Positions 3,904 through 56,760 of a DNA stretch of 64,000 nt are shown here, one piece after another. Position numbers and translations under genes: made by a program. The notes beneath the pieces were generated by a model that was given only the letters and a program-made list of their open reading frames with translations, did no database searches and was not told the origin of the DNA. Origin of the DNA: a virus; the IMG/VR virus record IMGVR_UViG_3300028920_000002, positions 32,001-96,000 of that record. One strand, written 5' to 3'. Each line of letters begins with the position of its first letter. Position 1 is the first letter of the stretch.

Positions 3904-4872
3904 ATGATTCGCCGCAGCCCCTGCGAGTGCTACATCAAGTACCTGCTCGTGCACCCCGATGGGTACGCTGATACTGCAGTCATTGACCTGCTCCGGCTAC
4001 AACAGCTCGATGTAGTGAGCGCGGCGTACATCGACCGCTTGAGGCGGAGCATGCGTCTGCCCAAGCCGTTCTACCCCAGCAATAGGCTGCATAGGCCGTC
4101 GAGCCGGTTTCTCCGAGCGCAGCATATCTACCTGCTGTTCCACCCCGACCAGTCCATGCGGGAGGCCCAGCAGATTTTGCGCCATGCCCGAGGCAAGGAG
4201 CTCATGGAGACATTGGTGCTCGCCGGTGAGCCTCCAGCCTTCATCGCTCACAGACTTTCCGGGGCCGGCTTCAAGTGCACGACTGAAACAGTTGAGCGCT
4301 ACTGCCACCACTTCTGGAATCTCCGCCTACTCGACTCTACTGAGACTCGTGCACTACTCCGCTTGCGGTGGGAGTACGTCTCTGACGTTGAGGAGCCGGA
4401 AGATGCGCGCACGCGCACCGCGTTGAAGAAGGCGTACCACAACGACCCGCGGCGCATCGTGGCCGAGAACCCGGTCAGCCCGCTCGCCGGGGTGATGGGC
4501 CAGATGCAGCTTGGCTACATGCCCGGTCAGGTTGAGCTGTCTCGTCTAGCCGACGCAACTCGCACGGCGGCGCAGCTGCAGATGATGGCCTCATCGGTTG
4601 TAGGAGGTCCTGGCCGCGCTGCTGAGGCGAGGGATTGGTCCATGGTCGTGTCGGCCATGACTCAGCTCATTGCAGATATAGGCAGTCCGGAGGCAGAGTT
4701 GCAGAAGGAGCTGCAGCAGCTGGGGCTCAAGACCGAAGAGGCTATGGTCCCGCACATCAAAGAGCTCAGCGATGGGTCGCACACGGTGGATTTGCAGCCG
4801 ATAGGAGACAGCGATGTCAGTGAGGAGCCAAGAGCAGGAGCGTCAGGTGGTACTGGGGGAAGTGCCGGATGA
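3904..4872 (+). CDS. Hypothetical protein upstream of terminase (possible DNA-binding or small-terminase-like)
   Basis: 322-aa ORF, helical, C-terminal coiled coil; function inferred from position only. Confidence 0.6.
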   Translation: MIRRSPCECYIKYLLVHPDGYADTAVIDLLRLQQLDVVSAAYIDRLRRSMRLPKPFYPSNRLHRPSSRFLRAQHIYLLFHPDQSMREAQQILRHARGKELMETLVLAGEPPAFIAHRLSGAGFKCTTETVERYCHHFWNLRLLDSTETRALLRLRWEYVSDVEEPEDARTRTALKKAYHNDPRRIVAENPVSPLAGVMGQMQLGYMPGQVELSRLADATRTAAQLQMMASSVVGGPGRAAEARDWSMVVSAMTQLIADIGSPEAELQKELQQLGLKTEEAMVPHIKELSDGSHTVDLQPIGDSDVSEEPRAGASGGTGGSAG

Positions 4873-8080: not shown

Positions 8081-9736
8081 ATGCACGACCTTCCATCCAT
8101 CACCCTTCTGCAGCAGGCTCACGCAGTCCCCAAGACCGGAGAAGAACTCGAAGTTCTCGGGAAGACCGCGGCTTGTAGGTATGAATCGGGTGAGTGCTCC
8201 AGTCTCAGCGATGCTGTGGTGGAGACCGTCAAACACGCCGGCCTCTCCCCGGAGCAGGTGAAACGGGTCACCGAGTTCACCAACCAGGCGGCGTACCTCA
8301 ACGAGTTCCGCAAGCTGGGGAGCAACCACAAGTACATCGAGTTCGACGGCGGCCCGGCCGACCCCGGCGCTGTGTTGAAGGACCTCAACGATGGGAGTGG
8401 CGGCACCGTCTTCGACCGTGGCGTCCTCGACTACGCCTCCCAGCCGTCGACTCCTGTGAAGACCGCATCCGTGAAGCGCAACATGGCTCGGCTGGAGAAG
8501 GTGGCTCAGCGCTTCATGAGCGATGCGGACTTGGCACAGTTCGCTGGCATGCAGCCGATGGGCATGGAGAATTGGCGGGACAACCCCATGTATCAGAACC
8601 AGCGGAAGCTGCAGCAGGTGGCGATGCTCAGTGCCATGACCGGCCGGCAGCCCATCAAGGTCGCTGCTGCTGAAGAGAAGCCGTTGCCCGGTAACGGGCT
8701 CGGTGAGCGAGGGAGGGGCGCTCCAGGACCGGGTTCTGGGTGTGACCAGCCGGGACGTCGGCTTGGGCAGAGGGGCGAGGTCCCCCGTAAGTTTAGGCAC
8801 CGCGCTGCGGATTTGTCGGCGGTGCAGCTCGCTGGTGAGCGGAAGCAGTCGTCGGCCGAGCTCGACTTCAACCCGGCCGAAGCCGCCTTCGAGGACATGT
8901 TCCGAGCCGACGGGCCGGAGACTGAGCCGTACCACGAGCCCATGCAGGACACGCTCGACATGAGGGAGAAGCTCGCCGGCGCGCGGGACCACCTGACGGG
9001 TGAGCTCGGAGGGCTCGAGCTCGCCTTCGGCGAGGTCCTCGAGGACATGTACCAGCAGGTCAAGCAGGCGGCGCTGCAGGGCGCGACGCTCGGCCAGGTA
9101 ATTCGTGCCTGGAACGACGTGGTCCCCGGGCCGGAGTACGTGAAGACCGCCTTCGCCCACATCGGCCCGCGCCTGCATGAGGAGGGAGTCTTCCCCTCCC
9201 TCGACTCCATCGGCGAGTCGCTCACCAAGACTGCGGCCACTGGGCTGGTAAACCACAGTCACCCTTTGGTCCAGTCCATGGCCGCGTATATCACCGTGCT
9301 CGATAAGCTGGCTCATGTGCGCGCAGCACGGGATGAGCTGGCTCAGGAGTTCGAGCGCATCGATTGGTTCGCCAAGCGTGCAGCTCCGACCGCTCAAGGG
9401 CTCAACATCATGAAGCGGATGGCCCAGAGTGGAGGGCTCATCCCAAAAGTGACGGGCGCTGCCAGGCGAGCGGGTGAAGCTGTAGCTCCTCGGGTGCAGC
9501 AGGTGGGGGAGGCCCTCCTAGGCGCCGGCTCTCCAGCCGCTGCGCAGATGGGGCAACTCGCTGGCGGCGCCGTCAAGTACACCCCGCATGCCGTTGCCGG
9601 ATTGGCCGGCCTCGAGGCGTACCAGCGCGCCAAGTACAACCCGGCCTTCCAGACGGCGAAGAACGCCCTGCTCGGCCGCATTCCCTACACCCACCCCTGG
9701 CAAGTTCGGCAGTACCAGCTGCAGATGGGAGCATGA
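8081..9736 (+). CDS. Internal head protein, KxA-motif rich (551 aa)
   Basis: KTA x4, KVA x2, KQS, KLA x2, KRA motifs; C-terminal Gly/Ala-rich amphipathic segment; RBS AGAGG. Confidence 0.7.
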   Translation: MHDLPSITLLQQAHAVPKTGEELEVLGKTAACRYESGECSSLSDAVVETVKHAGLSPEQVKRVTEFTNQAAYLNEFRKLGSNHKYIEFDGGPADPGAVLKDLNDGSGGTVFDRGVLDYASQPSTPVKTASVKRNMARLEKVAQRFMSDADLAQFAGMQPMGMENWRDNPMYQNQRKLQQVAMLSAMTGRQPIKVAAAEEKPLPGNGLGERGRGAPGPGSGCDQPGRRLGQRGEVPRKFRHRAADLSAVQLAGERKQSSAELDFNPAEAAFEDMFRADGPETEPYHEPMQDTLDMREKLAGARDHLTGELGGLELAFGEVLEDMYQQVKQAALQGATLGQVIRAWNDVVPGPEYVKTAFAHIGPRLHEEGVFPSLDSIGESLTKTAATGLVNHSHPLVQSMAAYITVLDKLAHVRAARDELAQEFERIDWFAKRAAPTAQGLNIMKRMAQSGGLIPKVTGAARRAGEAVAPRVQQVGEALLGAGSPAAAQMGQLAGGAVKYTPHAVAGLAGLEAYQRAKYNPAFQTAKNALLGRIPYTHPWQVRQYQLQMGA

Positions 9737-35227: not shown

Positions 35228-35296
35228 GTTCGGCCTCCACCCTCAGTGTAACTATGGGCGTGTTCGGGTACAACAACTACGGGAGTTGGAGTAGCA

Positions 35297-35546: not shown

Positions 35547-36185
35547 ATGGCCGACACGAGCGAGTTCAGGAAGAAGCTGCGGTCGGGCGAATACGTTTCG
35601 CTGACAGGCGCCAAGCGCGCCATCGGGAAGATGAAGGGTTGGAGCGAAGTCGACCGAAACAAGGCCCGTGCGGCAGCCGAGAGGCACTTCGCCGGCGAGG
35701 AGAGTCCTCCCAAGAAGGTTGCCAAGAAGAAGACCAAGAAGAAGGCGCAGTCGAAGCCGGCGAAGAAGGCCGCTGCCAAGAAGGTGCCGAAGAAGCGCAA
35801 GGCCAAGAAGGTTCGCCGCGCCCAGAAGGCAGTGACTACGACGCATCGTGCGTCTCCCAAGCCGAGAGGCGACCAACCGGTGATGCAACGCATCGAGCTC
35901 GCCCACGCTACGGTCGGCACCTACAAGCAGGCCCTCGATACGCTCGAGCGCTGCAAGCAGCTCGCCCCGGAGGTGGACATCACCAAGGGAGTCCAGAAGG
36001 CCACCGACGGTCTGACCCAGCTGGTGCAGGGACTCTTCACCGATGTGGTGGGTACGCTCTCCCCGAATGAGGAGAAGGCGGCGCAGCTGCTGGCCAAGAG
36101 CCAGCCCAGCAACGGCGGCATGGTGGCCCCGACCCCGCCCGTCGTGACTCCCCCGCCTCAGCAGCCGCCCGGAGCTACCATCTAG
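35547..36185 (+). CDS. Histone H1-like Lys/Ala-rich DNA-binding protein
   Basis: RBS AGGAG; central KKVAKKKTKKKAQSKPAKKAAAKKVPKKRKAKK tract between helical domains. Confidence 0.68.
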   Translation: MADTSEFRKKLRSGEYVSLTGAKRAIGKMKGWSEVDRNKARAAAERHFAGEESPPKKVAKKKTKKKAQSKPAKKAAAKKVPKKRKAKKVRRAQKAVTTTHRASPKPRGDQPVMQRIELAHATVGTYKQALDTLERCKQLAPEVDITKGVQKATDGLTQLVQGLFTDVVGTLSPNEEKAAQLLAKSQPSNGGMVAPTPPVVTPPPQQPPGATI

Positions 36186-36628
36186 CTCTGGCCCTTGGGT
36201 CTCCAGACTAGGCTGAGCAGGTCCTTGTCGTCTTCGACAGTGGGGCTGCCTAGTCCCCTATGGTCACCCCTGTCCTCGATGGGGATGGCCCACCTGCGCG
36301 TGCCGTGTGGGGTCTCCAGCAGGACGTGGATGGCATCCTCATCCTTCTGGCTGGCCAGTAGCACGGCCCAGGCGTTGGTGCGCTTGACAGCCGCCTCCAT
36401 CTGAGAGCGCCAGTTGGCCTCTTCTTCAGGCAGCTCTACGATGACCGGACCGTCACGAACCATGCCGTCGTCATCAACGAAGGAGCGGCCTGGCCACGTG
36501 ATGAAGAACGGAGCGAAGCTCTCATCCTCCCACGAGTCGTAGATGGTTTGGATGCCACCTTCTTCTACTTCTCTGCACAGCTGGTCGTGGATGAATCGCT
36601 GCGAAGTATAGTAGTCCAGGTTGGCCAC
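36182..36628 (-). CDS. Hypothetical protein
   Basis: Start reassigned to GTG 36628 (VANLDYY); stop shares CTAG with the convergent gene. Confidence 0.6.
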   Translation of the reverse strand: MANLDYYTSQRFIHDQLCREVEEGGIQTIYDSWEDESFAPFFITWPGRSFVDDDGMVRDGPVIVELPEEEANWRSQMEAAVKRTNAWAVLLASQKDEDAIHVLLETPHGTRRWAIPIEDRGDHRGLGSPTVEDDKDLLSLVWRPKGQS

Positions 36629-36637
36629 GGTTGAACT

Positions 36638-36943
36638 ATGAGCCGAACACACCAGGCGATGCAAGTCTTTCGTCGGGAGCTGCGCAGCCGATTCCCTCGT
36701 CTCAAGCGCGCGGCGCACGTAGATGAGCTACTGATAGAGCCAGGCGTACACGGGGAATTCACGCTCGTGTTGCGCTGGTCGCGAGGACCAACCGGCCCGG
36801 GGGAGTACCGCAAGTACTTCAGTCGGCAGTTCGTATTGGGGAGGACGGCTACTGCATCTCCGCTGCAGCAACGGCCGAAGATGAAGACCTGTAGATTCGT
36901 CGACCAGGTAGCGGAGGAAGTTCTCAGAGCAAGAGGTGTCTGA
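36638..36943 (+). CDS. Hypothetical basic protein
   Basis: 101 aa, first gene of a long coupled plus-strand run. Confidence 0.6.
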   Translation: MSRTHQAMQVFRRELRSRFPRLKRAAHVDELLIEPGVHGEFTLVLRWSRGPTGPGEYRKYFSRQFVLGRTATASPLQQRPKMKTCRFVDQVAEEVLRARGV

Positions 36944-37391
36944 AGTACCGGGTGCGGTGAGCACCGTCATATCAGTCGTCTGCAGCCACTTTGGGGTGAC
37001 CCAGTCTTCGCTGCTAGGCACGAGAAGAACGGGCAGCATACCCAAAGCGCGCATGATGGCCTACTTCCTCCTGCGCGAGAGGTTTCAGTACAGCTACCCC
37101 CAGATAGCCGCTGCGTTCAAGAAGGACAGCAGCACTATCATCCAAGGCTACAAGAAGCTCAAGCAGCAGATGCAGAGCGACGTAGACCTAATGGCAGCCG
37201 CAACGCTGCTGATGAAGAAAGTGGAGCGGCTGGTTACCTTGAGCAGCGGTAACGTCATCTATACCACGGTGTCGACCCCGGTGAGGGCGCGCTTGGAGGA
37301 GCTGCTCAAGACAGGGATGTACGGAAACGACCTCGGAGACGTGGTCGAGAGATTGGTGTGTCAGCAACTGCAAGGATTGAAGAGCAAATGA
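36936..37391 (+). CDS. DnaA domain IV (Bac_DnaA_C) HTH fused to a C-terminal ribbon-helix-helix
   Basis: VCSHFGVTQSSLLGTRR...ARMMAYFLLRE...SYPQIAAAFKKDSSTII aligns by eye to DnaA domain IV; VIYTTVSTPVRARLEELL...GMYGNDLGDVVERL is RHH-like. Confidence 0.8.
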   Translation: MSEVPGAVSTVISVVCSHFGVTQSSLLGTRRTGSIPKARMMAYFLLRERFQYSYPQIAAAFKKDSSTIIQGYKKLKQQMQSDVDLMAAATLLMKKVERLVTLSSGNVIYTTVSTPVRARLEELLKTGMYGNDLGDVVERLVCQQLQGLKSK

Positions 37392-37860: not shown

Positions 37861-38046
37861 ATGGCTAGGCACTACAAAATCATCATCAAGGTGGCGTACG
37901 AGGAAGGCACCATTCCTGAGAAGGGAATGGAGGATGACCTACGTCGGGGAGTAGATGCAGCCGTACAGATTGGCTTGCTCAACGATGCGGACGCTAACGC
38001 AGTGGTAGAGGAGTACGACGTTGAAGTGGAGGAAGTGACCAAGTGA
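37861..38046 (+). CDS. Small acidic hypothetical protein
   Basis: 61 aa, abuts both neighbours. Confidence 0.65.
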   Translation: MARHYKIIIKVAYEEGTIPEKGMEDDLRRGVDAAVQIGLLNDADANAVVEEYDVEVEEVTK

Positions 38047-38822
38047 ACATCGTCAAACCAAGCTACGAAATCCTGGGCATCTTCCCAGGTGAAGAAGACT
38101 GCCTGCAGTGGCTCGAGCGCATCGGGCGCACCTGCTACAAGAGCGAGGACAAAATCACTGCAGAGAGCGCACCCAAGTTCGTGCGCAGCATACTGAAGCT
38201 GGACCGGATGGAGAAACTGGCGAGCAGGTTTCTATCGATTGCCACAGACCCGGAATACGATGGTCCGCATGAGGCCGTGATGGCTTTGATGGAGGCTGTG
38301 CATGACATGCTCGCCGACCCTCCGCACGAGTCCGTCATCGAGCACAGCCTGATGACCGTACGGTTCGTTTTCGACCGGGGCATCTCTCACGAGATGGTGC
38401 GTCACCGCCTATGTGCCTTCAGCCAGGAATCCACCCGCTACTGCAATTACGGCAAGGGCGACGACATCAACTTCATCAAGCCTCCGTTCTGGCCGGAGGA
38501 AGACAGCGGAGACTCAGCCGTGAGCGAGTCAGAGCCCTACGATGTTTGGGAGCACGCTTGTTTGACGGCAGAGAGCGATTACAACGCCCTGGTCAACTTT
38601 CACAAGGCCAAGCCCGAGCAAGCCCGCTCCGTGCTTCCCAACTCCCTCAAGACGGAGATTGTCGTCTCAACCAACTTCCGTGAGTGGCGCCACATCTTCA
38701 GGCTGCGCACCAGCAAGCGCGCTCACCCGCAGATTCGGGAAGTCATGGTGCCTCTGCTGAAGGAGCTCAAGGCCAAGCCCAACCTGGGCCTGCTCTTCAG
38801 TGACATCGAGGTGACCGAATGA
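38043..38822 (+). CDS. thyX: FAD-dependent thymidylate synthase
   Basis: HESVIEH, RGISHEMVRHRLCAFSQESTRY signature, NFREWRHIFRLR...AHPQIRE. Confidence 0.95.
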   Translation: MNIVKPSYEILGIFPGEEDCLQWLERIGRTCYKSEDKITAESAPKFVRSILKLDRMEKLASRFLSIATDPEYDGPHEAVMALMEAVHDMLADPPHESVIEHSLMTVRFVFDRGISHEMVRHRLCAFSQESTRYCNYGKGDDINFIKPPFWPEEDSGDSAVSESEPYDVWEHACLTAESDYNALVNFHKAKPEQARSVLPNSLKTEIVVSTNFREWRHIFRLRTSKRAHPQIREVMVPLLKELKAKPNLGLLFSDIEVTE

Positions 38823-55638: not shown

Positions 55639-55708
55639 GGTGTCTCCTCTCGTTCTGGGAACGTGGTTCCCACCAGGATTCTTATCCCGTATTCGAGAGG
55701 AGTTTTGG

Positions 55709-55969
55709 TTATGCTGCCGCGGGACGAAGTGCTCCCTCAACTGCATTGACCGCGAAGGACAAAGCAGTCTGGACATCTTCAGTGCTCGCGTCGATGCCCT
55801 TCAGGACACCCAGAGCGACCTCAGCCCCTGCCGGGCTCGAGACCTCAAGCCCACGCAGTTGCTGGGCCTCCTTGGTGTGCCCTGAACGCGCGAGCACGTC
55901 ACGGCACAGCTCAACGCTGATGGTGGCGTTCTCGTAGTTCACTGGGTTCACCTGAGGGATGAGGTACAT
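55709..55969 (-). CDS. Small hypothetical protein
   Basis: 86 aa helical ORF downstream of the AT-rich island. Confidence 0.6.
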   Translation of the reverse strand: MYLIPQVNPVNYENATISVELCRDVLARSGHTKEAQQLRGLEVSSPAGAEVALGVLKGIDASTEDVQTALSFAVNAVEGALRPAAA

Positions 55970-56100
55970 CTCTATTTACAATTTGGTTCTTCTTCCGTGT
56001 ACTTGCAAGAGAAAATCGTCATTGTACTTCAACGGTCAAGTGAACAATCGATGAAGTAATTGGGGCTAGAAGAAGAAAACTCTAGTGTTCACAAGACCTT
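55970..56100. promoter_or_regulatory. AT-rich intergenic island (promoter region or origin unwinding element)
   Basis: Visibly the most AT-rich stretch in the window; TGTACTT direct repeat (55998, 56023), TACAAT on minus strand, GTGAACA/TGTTCAC inverted pair. Confidence 0.5.
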
Positions 56101-56141
56101 GCGCGGGGCGCCCCACGTTGGGACGCCCCGGCACAGTCCGG

Positions 56142-56555
56142 TCACGGCAGCGGGAACGGCAGCACCTTCTTGGCGATGAAGATGAGCGCCACGCCGGCGA
56201 TGGTCATCGCGCCAGCGTTGCACAGCACATCGACGGACCGATGGCCCGCGGCGCGCAGCGCGACTCTCGTCCTGCTCTCGGTCTCGGTGACCGGAGCGGG
56301 GGTGGGTGCAGGCGCGCTCTGAATCGGGGCGCCGTTGCCGGGCTGGGGATTGGTCTGGGTTGCGTCGCTCATGATTCTCTCCTCTGCAGAGTGTGGGCTC
56401 TTTGCCCTTCCACTCTTCTTATCCCGCTTCCTGCGCGGTTTTTGCTCTGGCTGGGGAAGCGCGTAGCCAGCATCTGACAGGGTGTACGTGAGCGGGCGCT
56501 TCTCGGGGTTCCGCTCGTACGTCTTCTTCGACTCTCGTTCTTGAATCTCCGGCAC
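56142..56555 (-). CDS. C-terminally membrane-anchored small protein with two in-frame starts (GTG 56555, ATG 56372)
   Basis: Both starts have RBS (AAGGAG; GAGGAG); TM AGAMTIAGVALIFIA near the C-terminus. Confidence 0.55.
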   Translation of the reverse strand: MPEIQERESKKTYERNPEKRPLTYTLSDAGYALPQPEQKPRRKRDKKSGRAKSPHSAEERIMSDATQTNPQPGNGAPIQSAPAPTPAPVTETESRTRVALRAAGHRSVDVLCNAGAMTIAGVALIFIAKKVLPFPLP

Positions 56556-56760
56556 CGGGTCTCCTTTCCGCGTCCACTTTTGTTATCCCTTCAACCGGAC
56601 GAAGTTTGCGGGAGGGGCGAGCCACAAGAGGGACCGGCAAGCCACACAGTGGCGAACGAGCACTCTGCTCCGCCGGCAGGACCAGCGGTGGAAAGGAGGT
56701 GTGACTCACCCCTCCAGAACTGTTATCCCCACTTCCCTGCTAGCTTTGCGGGGTGGGTCC

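Follow-up and report, generated by a model that had tools for sequence, protein, structure and literature searches.

A metagenomic phage protein that joins a DnaA domain IV to an RHH-like tail at the head of a nucleotide-metabolism gene block

The DNA-reading part of DnaA is its domain IV, for which structures are available from E. coli (1J1V) and Mycobacterium tuberculosis (3PVP). In the E. coli protein, Arg399 contacts the TTA of the DnaA box in the minor groove and the helix formed by residues 434–451 contacts TnCACA in the major groove; the substitutions T435M and R399A each abolish binding (PMC5742627). Domain IV has also been re-used outside DnaA. The TnpA(REP) proteins of subclass 2.1, which are Y1 HuH enzymes, carry a C-terminal Bac_DnaA_C-like domain, and their associated repeats are unlike DnaA boxes (PMC6006769). 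There, the partner is a transposase-like nuclease and the setting is cellular, in a non-phage element, which distinguishes these proteins from the family described here.

Stand-alone ‘DnaA C-terminal’ proteins of 79–200 aa with the domain IV fold are frequent in the annotation of uncultured phages (for example A0A6J5M868 and A0A6J5LT00 in BFVD/UniProt). These are annotation-level entries for which we found no functional study in the literature. In BFVD, 41 viral models match at E ≤ 0.001, and many stand-alone forms of about 90–175 aa are present among the top 150 representatives. Most of them have no ribbon-helix-helix (RHH) tail, whereas the family analysed here adds such a tail and occupies a fixed genomic position. 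The tail itself has the strand-helix-turn-helix layout of the RHH regulators and antitoxins (Arc, CopG, NikR, ParD, MazE and the N-terminal domain of PutA). In those proteins the RHH reads DNA and is usually N-terminal. In contrast, the tail studied here comes at the C-terminus, after another DNA-binding domain. No RHH sequence profile matches it, and in the close relatives its ribbon is poor in base-reading residues. We found no description in the literature of a DnaA-IV–RHH fusion or of a fixed place for one in front of dNTP genes.

The window, by which we mean the whole stretch of 64,000 nucleotides that was analysed, comprises bases 32001–96000 of a 186,723-bp IMG/VR phage record (G000) that has direct terminal repeats and is rated 100% complete. 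The features discussed below are collected in Table 1. The open frame of the DnaA-IV/RHH gene is 159 codons long, and the sole start codon available other than the one given in the table is GTG 36957. The assigned GTG overlaps the TGA of the upstream 101-aa ORF by 8 nt, and the N-terminus that it produces has a length that matches that of relatives of 152–155 aa. The public gene call (P0002) is a 111-aa protein starting at Met41, which lacks helices 1 and 2 of the domain and is at odds with the full-length relatives. The ESM Atlas entry corresponds to the same 111-aa form and is a poor model (Atlas pLDDT 0.58).

Table 1. Features of the DnaA-IV/RHH locus (positions are those of the window; E. 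coli DnaA numbering where indicated)
Feature	Residues	Position	Strand	Basis or remark
Upstream ORF, 101 aa		36638..36943	+	Overlaps start of DnaA-IV gene; conserved partner gene
DnaA-IV/RHH gene, 151 aa		36936..37391	+	ORF list and translation; GTG start, TGA stop
DnaA domain IV (Bac_DnaA_C)	9–74 (Pfam); fold about 6–81	36960..37157	+	Pfam
Basic loop GTRRTGSIPKAR	28–39	37017..37052	+	Arg31 = E. coli Arg399 by HMMER alignment to 1j1v
DnaA signature position, KDSSTIIQG	63–71	37122..37148	+	HMMER alignment
Long linker helix	83–104	37182..37247	+	Secondary structure of AF2 model
RHH-like tail	105–150	37248..37385	+	AF2 models, structure comparison
Downstream ORF, about 100 aa		37388..37690	+	Start in ATGA overlap with DnaA-IV stop codon; same operon
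ThyX thymidylate synthase		38043..38822	+	PF02511, E 1.2e-40; first recognisable nucleotide-metabolism gene
TTATCCC in window		52893, 55682, 56419, 56583, 56723	+	
E. coli Arg399	Arg31			Kept
E. coli Pro423	Pro55			Kept
E. coli Asp433	Asp64			Kept
E. coli His434	Ser65			Changed
E. coli Thr435	Ser66			Changed
E. coli Thr436	Thr67			Kept
E. coli His439	Gln70			Changed

The original prediction, made from the letters of the window, described the protein as a DnaA domain IV without an AAA+ domain, and both statements hold. PF08299 (Bac_DnaA_C) matches residues 9–74 (E 7.8e-17) and scores 61.5 bits, above the curated gathering threshold of 31.5, and a profile of the family matches the PDB chains of DnaA at E 1e-22. 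The AF2 model, for which an alignment of 20 family sequences was the input, has a pLDDT of 90.7. When compared by Foldseek, it gave a TMt of 0.91 over 93 columns with the M. tuberculosis DnaA DNA-binding domain (3pvp_A; rmsd 1.1 Å) and a TMt of 0.90 with E. coli domain IV (1j1v_A), the rmsd being 1.1–1.2 Å for both DnaA structures. The remainder of DnaA, domains I–III, is absent. The full-length DnaA equivalog TIGR00362 scored 64.3 bits, where the cut-off is 343.9, and was matched over its last 90 profile positions only; the NCBIfam DnaA models behaved alike, aligning over their last ∼90 positions and falling far under the equivalog cut-off. The AAA+ family PF00308 had 0 matches not only in the protein but in the whole 186,723-bp phage genome, which rules out a split DnaA with its AAA+ part encoded elsewhere in the phage.

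The two strings to which the prediction had drawn attention were confirmed: GTRRTGSI occupies residues 28–35 and KDSSTIIQG residues 63–71, and HMMER aligns them with SKRRSRSV and RDHTTVLHA of E. coli DnaA, respectively. In place of the canonical signature R-D-H-T-T-V-x-H, the window protein has K-D-S-S-T-I-I-Q. The further claim of a ‘rewritten’ recognition helix is too strong. The major-groove face is indeed altered, by His434→Ser, Thr435→Ser and His439→Gln (for the per-base roles of these three residues we relied on PMC5742627 and general knowledge), but the equivalents of Arg399, Pro423, Asp433 and Thr436 have all been kept.

Nor is the changed signature a trait of the family. The six close relatives, which are 36–44% identical and of the same length, all have NRDHTT or NRDHTS, and in a more distant set of 13 DnaA-IV+RHH proteins the majority have RDHTT or RDHST; KDSST is found in this copy only. 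A survey of 157 homologues returned DHTT 50 times and DHST 38 times, so the Thr435Ser change is ordinary. About 100 of the signatures recovered in that survey retain His434. Its loss was rare, with DSST (the window protein), DQST, DNST and three cases of DYTT. At position 439 the six close relatives have serine, cysteine or alanine, so that His439 is already lost there. With Thr435Ser common and position 439 varying within the family, the change that sets this copy apart is His434Ser. Judging from these residues, the RDHTT relatives, which lack His439, may themselves not be binders of the textbook box.

The DnaA-IV/RHH family consists of ∼17 clusters, all from a lineage of large uncultured phages known through metagenomes. 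The architecture is shared by the six close relatives (152–155 aa) and about a dozen more distant clusters, and there is no named member among these metagenomic proteins. The search for cultured or annotated relatives gave just four weak matches, to unannotated faecal phage contigs, and no match at the DNA level. A search of 185,579 prokaryotic species genomes returned 0 relatives and so gave no indication that the family occurs in prophages or cells. Some metagenomic proteins have an unusual repeat architecture, with three to six tandem DnaA-IV-like stretches per chain [P0010 (482 aa), P0011 (673 aa), P0018 (1680 aa) and P0023 (899 aa)].

The position of the gene is as constant as its architecture. 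In five independent phage contigs the order is tail and lysis genes, DnaA-IV/RHH and then dCMP deaminase, DNMK and ThyX, with the DnaA-IV/RHH gene heading the ThyX/dCMP-deaminase/dNMP-kinase block in every case. Its 5′ neighbour in the relatives is usually a short overlapping ORF that is itself conserved. In the window this is the 101-aa ORF, which is 45–46% identical to the ORFs at the same position in contigs L002 and L004 and had 0 matches in Pfam, PHROG and NCBIfam. Its C-terminal half is strongly conserved and reads SPLQQRPxMKxCRFxD...VLxARGV. Translational coupling of this ORF to the DnaA-IV gene makes it a possible candidate for a partner protein. The ORF on the 3′ side aligns poorly to the ORFs at that position in the relatives, and no family could be detected for it. 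On the opposite strand, a 178-aa ORF (36182–36718) overlaps the start of the 101-aa ORF by ∼80 nt. Some relatives have a minus-strand ORF of 122–147 aa at this position and others have none, so the true start of the 178-aa ORF probably lies further in.

Sequence divergence is distributed unevenly along the protein. Between the window copy and its relatives, the N-terminal part is 24–34% identical and the tail 62–72% identical. The corresponding values among the relatives themselves are 51–76% and 65–90%. The low identity of the N-terminal part relative to the tail indicates that the DnaA-IV head has diverged unusually fast in this phage lineage.

In the AF2 model, the tail consists of an extended segment (residues 105–113, including NVIYTTVS), a helix (114–126), a turn (GMYGNDL) and a second helix (133–150). 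The last ∼47 residues were also folded alone, giving a pLDDT of 71. When this tail model was compared with 48,161 PDB chains without the Foldseek pre-filter, RHH proteins made up about 47 of the top 50 rows. NikR (Z 5.9) and ParD2 (Z 5.7) were among them, as were PrpA, MazE9, CdbA, the RHH of PutA, AmrZ, SvtR, TraM, Arc and omega; the Z scores of these neighbours ranged from 3.6 to 5.9 and the alignments covered model residues 3–52, that is, the extended segment and both helices. Across 20 family members, the residues in the tail ‘strand’ alternate in hydrophobicity, the helix is capped by proline or serine, and the turn between the helices contains a glycine. Foldseek also placed ParD, PrpA, NikR and the ParB of pCXC100 at the top for the tail, but with E > 1. 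The prediction that an RHH follows domain IV is supported at the level of the fold, with moderate strength given the pLDDT of 71, and we regard an RHH fold for the tail as quite probable. A free-standing RHH-like protein of 58 aa, found by scanning viral contigs (L006:1299-1475, IMGVR_UViG_3300022723_000109), shares LLETGLYGxxLxDVAERL with the tail, which shows that the tail is an independent module. A word search for short free-standing homologues of the tail returned none.

RHH domains are obligate dimers and their strands form only in the dimer. A dimeric binder, as originally proposed, is therefore a reasonable expectation. The reading that we prefer, with a probability of roughly 0.4, is that the protein binds DNA as an RHH-mediated dimer with two heads, most likely at DnaA-box sites of the host, and that its specificity is altered in this phage. 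The N-terminal module is a DnaA domain IV that has kept its fold, the minor-groove arginine and most of the DNA-facing residues. The RHH module, joined to it through the 22-residue helix, would produce a homodimer in which two DnaA-type heads are borne on long helical arms, and would in this way take over the job done in DnaA by AAA+ oligomerisation. Such a dimer would target DnaA-box-type sites of the host, in oriC or the DnaA regulon, and would compete there with host DnaA during takeover. Host sites are favoured by the canonical head of the relatives, by the lack of DnaA boxes on the phage's own DNA and by the restriction of the family to phages. In the phage studied here, the fast divergence of the DnaA-IV part and the loss of His434 would probably give an altered sequence preference.

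If so, phages may have copied the domain with which the host initiator reads DNA, in a two-headed form, and may use it to compete at DnaA boxes, an idea that can be tested. The RDHTT relatives and the KDSST copy, built on a shared scaffold, also constitute a natural pair with which to map the role of residue 434 in box specificity.

Scans of the phage DNA for canonical boxes covered G000 and a relative phage, G001, whose protein keeps RDHTT; the G001 sequence is 145.8 kb long and 78% complete, so that sites in that phage could be missed. Perfect TTATNCACA and TTWTNCACA sites were absent from G000, and neither phage contained a perfect TTATCCACA; for TTATNCACA, G001 was scanned solely with one mismatch allowed. 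Sites with one mismatch to the DnaA box numbered 10 in G001, against 6–16 expected, and were scattered and unclustered. In G000 there were 22, against 4–12 in Markov-2 shuffles. These too were unclustered, and the about two-fold excess is due in part to four TTATCCCCA sites, two of which lie within promoter-type boxes. Recurrent palindromic operators (7-mer arms, spacer 0–30) were found in neither genome.

The heptamer TTATCCC, with the TTAT of the DnaA box and a new 3′ half, had been put forward as a candidate target of the protein. It is over-represented in G000 (23 copies against 1.4–6.8 expected). It is also the reverse complement of the −10-like element GGGATAA, and most copies are found in one architecture, gCAAA-N17-GGGATAAg-N6-GTGG(A)-RBS-ATG. 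Most of these promoters precede ORFs, including those for a DnaB-like helicase and for a protein whose sigma-like match is weak and does not reach the cut-off. The promoter class gCAAA-N17-GGGATAAg amounts to about 18–20 copies and is common to G000 and G001, and its −10-like hexamer, GATAAG/C/A, does not have the usual final T. At 56.4–56.7 kb of the window, three copies stand in tandem 140–164 bp apart, and the short ORFs predicted there overlap one another. The weak match to sigma-70 region 4 lies at genome positions 103799–103945 (15.2 bits, E 0.003) in the gene that follows a GGGATAA promoter; a second match, above the Pfam cut-off, is in a 165-aa frame at genome positions 129499–129597, and both lie outside the window.

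The comparison with G001 favours the promoter description of this element. G001 carries GGGATAAG in the same promoter architecture as G000. Three co-oriented copies of GGGATAAG at 21.7–23.0 kb adjoin the G001 counterpart of the gene located after box 55682 in the window, while other homologous genes in G001 have the variants GTGATAAG, GGTATAAG and GGCATAAG. As GGGATAAG is present in a phage whose protein bears RDHTT, the box and the helix do not co-vary; co-variation of the two was ruled out by the upstream regions of the G001 homologues, where GGGATAAG is retained despite the canonical helix. The variants affect the box positions in the way that a −10 hexamer degenerates. On this comparison, the TTATCCC ‘variant DnaA boxes’ are −10-like promoter elements, and the tempting link between them and the DnaA-IV/RHH protein is removed.

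A promoter element can nevertheless be bound by a regulator, and the protein might recognise TTATCCC (= GGGATAA) at the −10 of phage promoters and shut them off. We consider this unlikely. TTATCC comprises six of the nine DnaA-box bases, and the family-wide loss of His439, together with the variability of box bases 8–9, would fit a reader of TTATCC only. The element is abundant, and most copies share one conserved promoter-like layout with a conserved CCAC 6 nt away. Because the hexamer is without the final T, a reader other than a plain sigma-70 contact may be involved, but the phage itself encodes sigma-like proteins. The helix change specific to the window copy has no matching change in the box, and the G001 promoters vary at the exact box positions, as a degenerate −10 would. 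In addition, no TTATCCC box occurs near the DnaA-IV/RHH operon, and the boxes occur one at a time, apart from one inverted pair genome-wide, a poor fit to a symmetric two-headed binder.

Within the close clade the last ∼30 residues of the tail do not vary, among phages with ∼30% identity elsewhere in the protein. Synonymous sites differ between these phages, which rules out a constraint at the nucleotide level and places it on the protein. In contrast to the invariant end, the ribbon residues vary among phages, and the ribbon of the close relatives, VVCAGFS, is without good base-reading side chains. Most likely, then, the tail is not a DNA reader but serves to hold two chains together and perhaps to bind a conserved partner. 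From the pattern of conservation, the main job of the invariant tail could be a protein contact unrelated to DNA. Taken further, the protein would be mainly a protein-binding decoy or adaptor that captures a conserved host or phage protein through the tail, perhaps also through the Hda-contact surface of domain IV (domain IV of DnaA binds Hda; PMC5742627), with DNA binding secondary or decayed in this phage. Translational coupling to the conserved 101-aa ORF would supply a possible partner, and His434 has been lost from the window copy. However, the basic loop and the equivalents of Arg399, Pro423, Asp433 and Thr436 are all kept, indicating that DNA contact is still under selection, and we think it quite unlikely that an adaptor function is the main role of the protein.

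The two-headed arrangement that we prefer depends on the tail being an RHH. If it were instead a simple helical hairpin packed on the linker helix, the protein would be a monomer binding a single box. Several observations are compatible with this: the tail alone had 0 profile matches in Pfam, PHROG or NCBIfam; DSSP assigned no strand in the monomer model of either the full-length protein or the tail; and all Z scores were below 6, a range in which common arrangements can score. Searching the PDB by sequence with the tail yielded nothing but designed helical repeats and LRR proteins, matches that we judged to be spurious. A weak lead in favour of an RHH comes from the ESM Atlas, where the nearest named clusters were RHH_1/CopG at 0.85. 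A missing strand is the expected outcome for a monomer model of a domain whose strands arise in the dimer. The near-uniform RHH identity of the 50 best chains, with alignments that take in the extended segment together with the two helices, and the strand-type hydrophobic alternation, helix cap and glycine turn seen family-wide also speak against a hairpin, which we regard as decidedly improbable.

That the protein is an origin-binding initiator, whose iterons would be the four co-oriented TTATCCC boxes around an AT-rich island at window positions 55679–56731, is very improbable: the phage has a DnaB-like helicase and no recognisable initiator, the box cluster adjoins the AT-rich stretch and the three co-oriented G001 copies lie beside the homologous gene, but the boxes are not spaced like iterons (737, 164 and 140 bp), each box has the full promoter architecture (three of the four are followed by an RBS-like motif and a start codon, box 56723 by a short, low-confidence ORF only), the same element precedes genes scattered across the genome, and a module for loading a helicase or melting DNA is absent from the protein. 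Equally far-fetched in our view is a composite in which the protein is, across this lineage of large environmental phages, a dimeric mimic of the DnaA DNA-binding domain at host DnaA boxes, halting initiation or de-repressing dNTP supply, and has here been retargeted through the loss of His434 to the phage's own TTATCC early promoters to act as an early-to-middle switch.

A search of the DNA adjoining the DnaA-IV/RHH gene for promoters, terminators and repeats gave nothing above chance. At the non-coding head of the operon (window 35246–35280) there is a direct-repeat pair of the form GTA(C)AAC(A/T)AC, consisting of GTGTAACTAT and GGGTACAACAACTAC. The pair is kept in four phages, the other locations being L002 ∼8755–8810, L004 ∼8755–8810 and L017 ∼4700–4760, and may represent a promoter or an operator. 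It bears no likeness to the DnaA box, and its bare heptamer, GTACAAC, is frequent in coding DNA.
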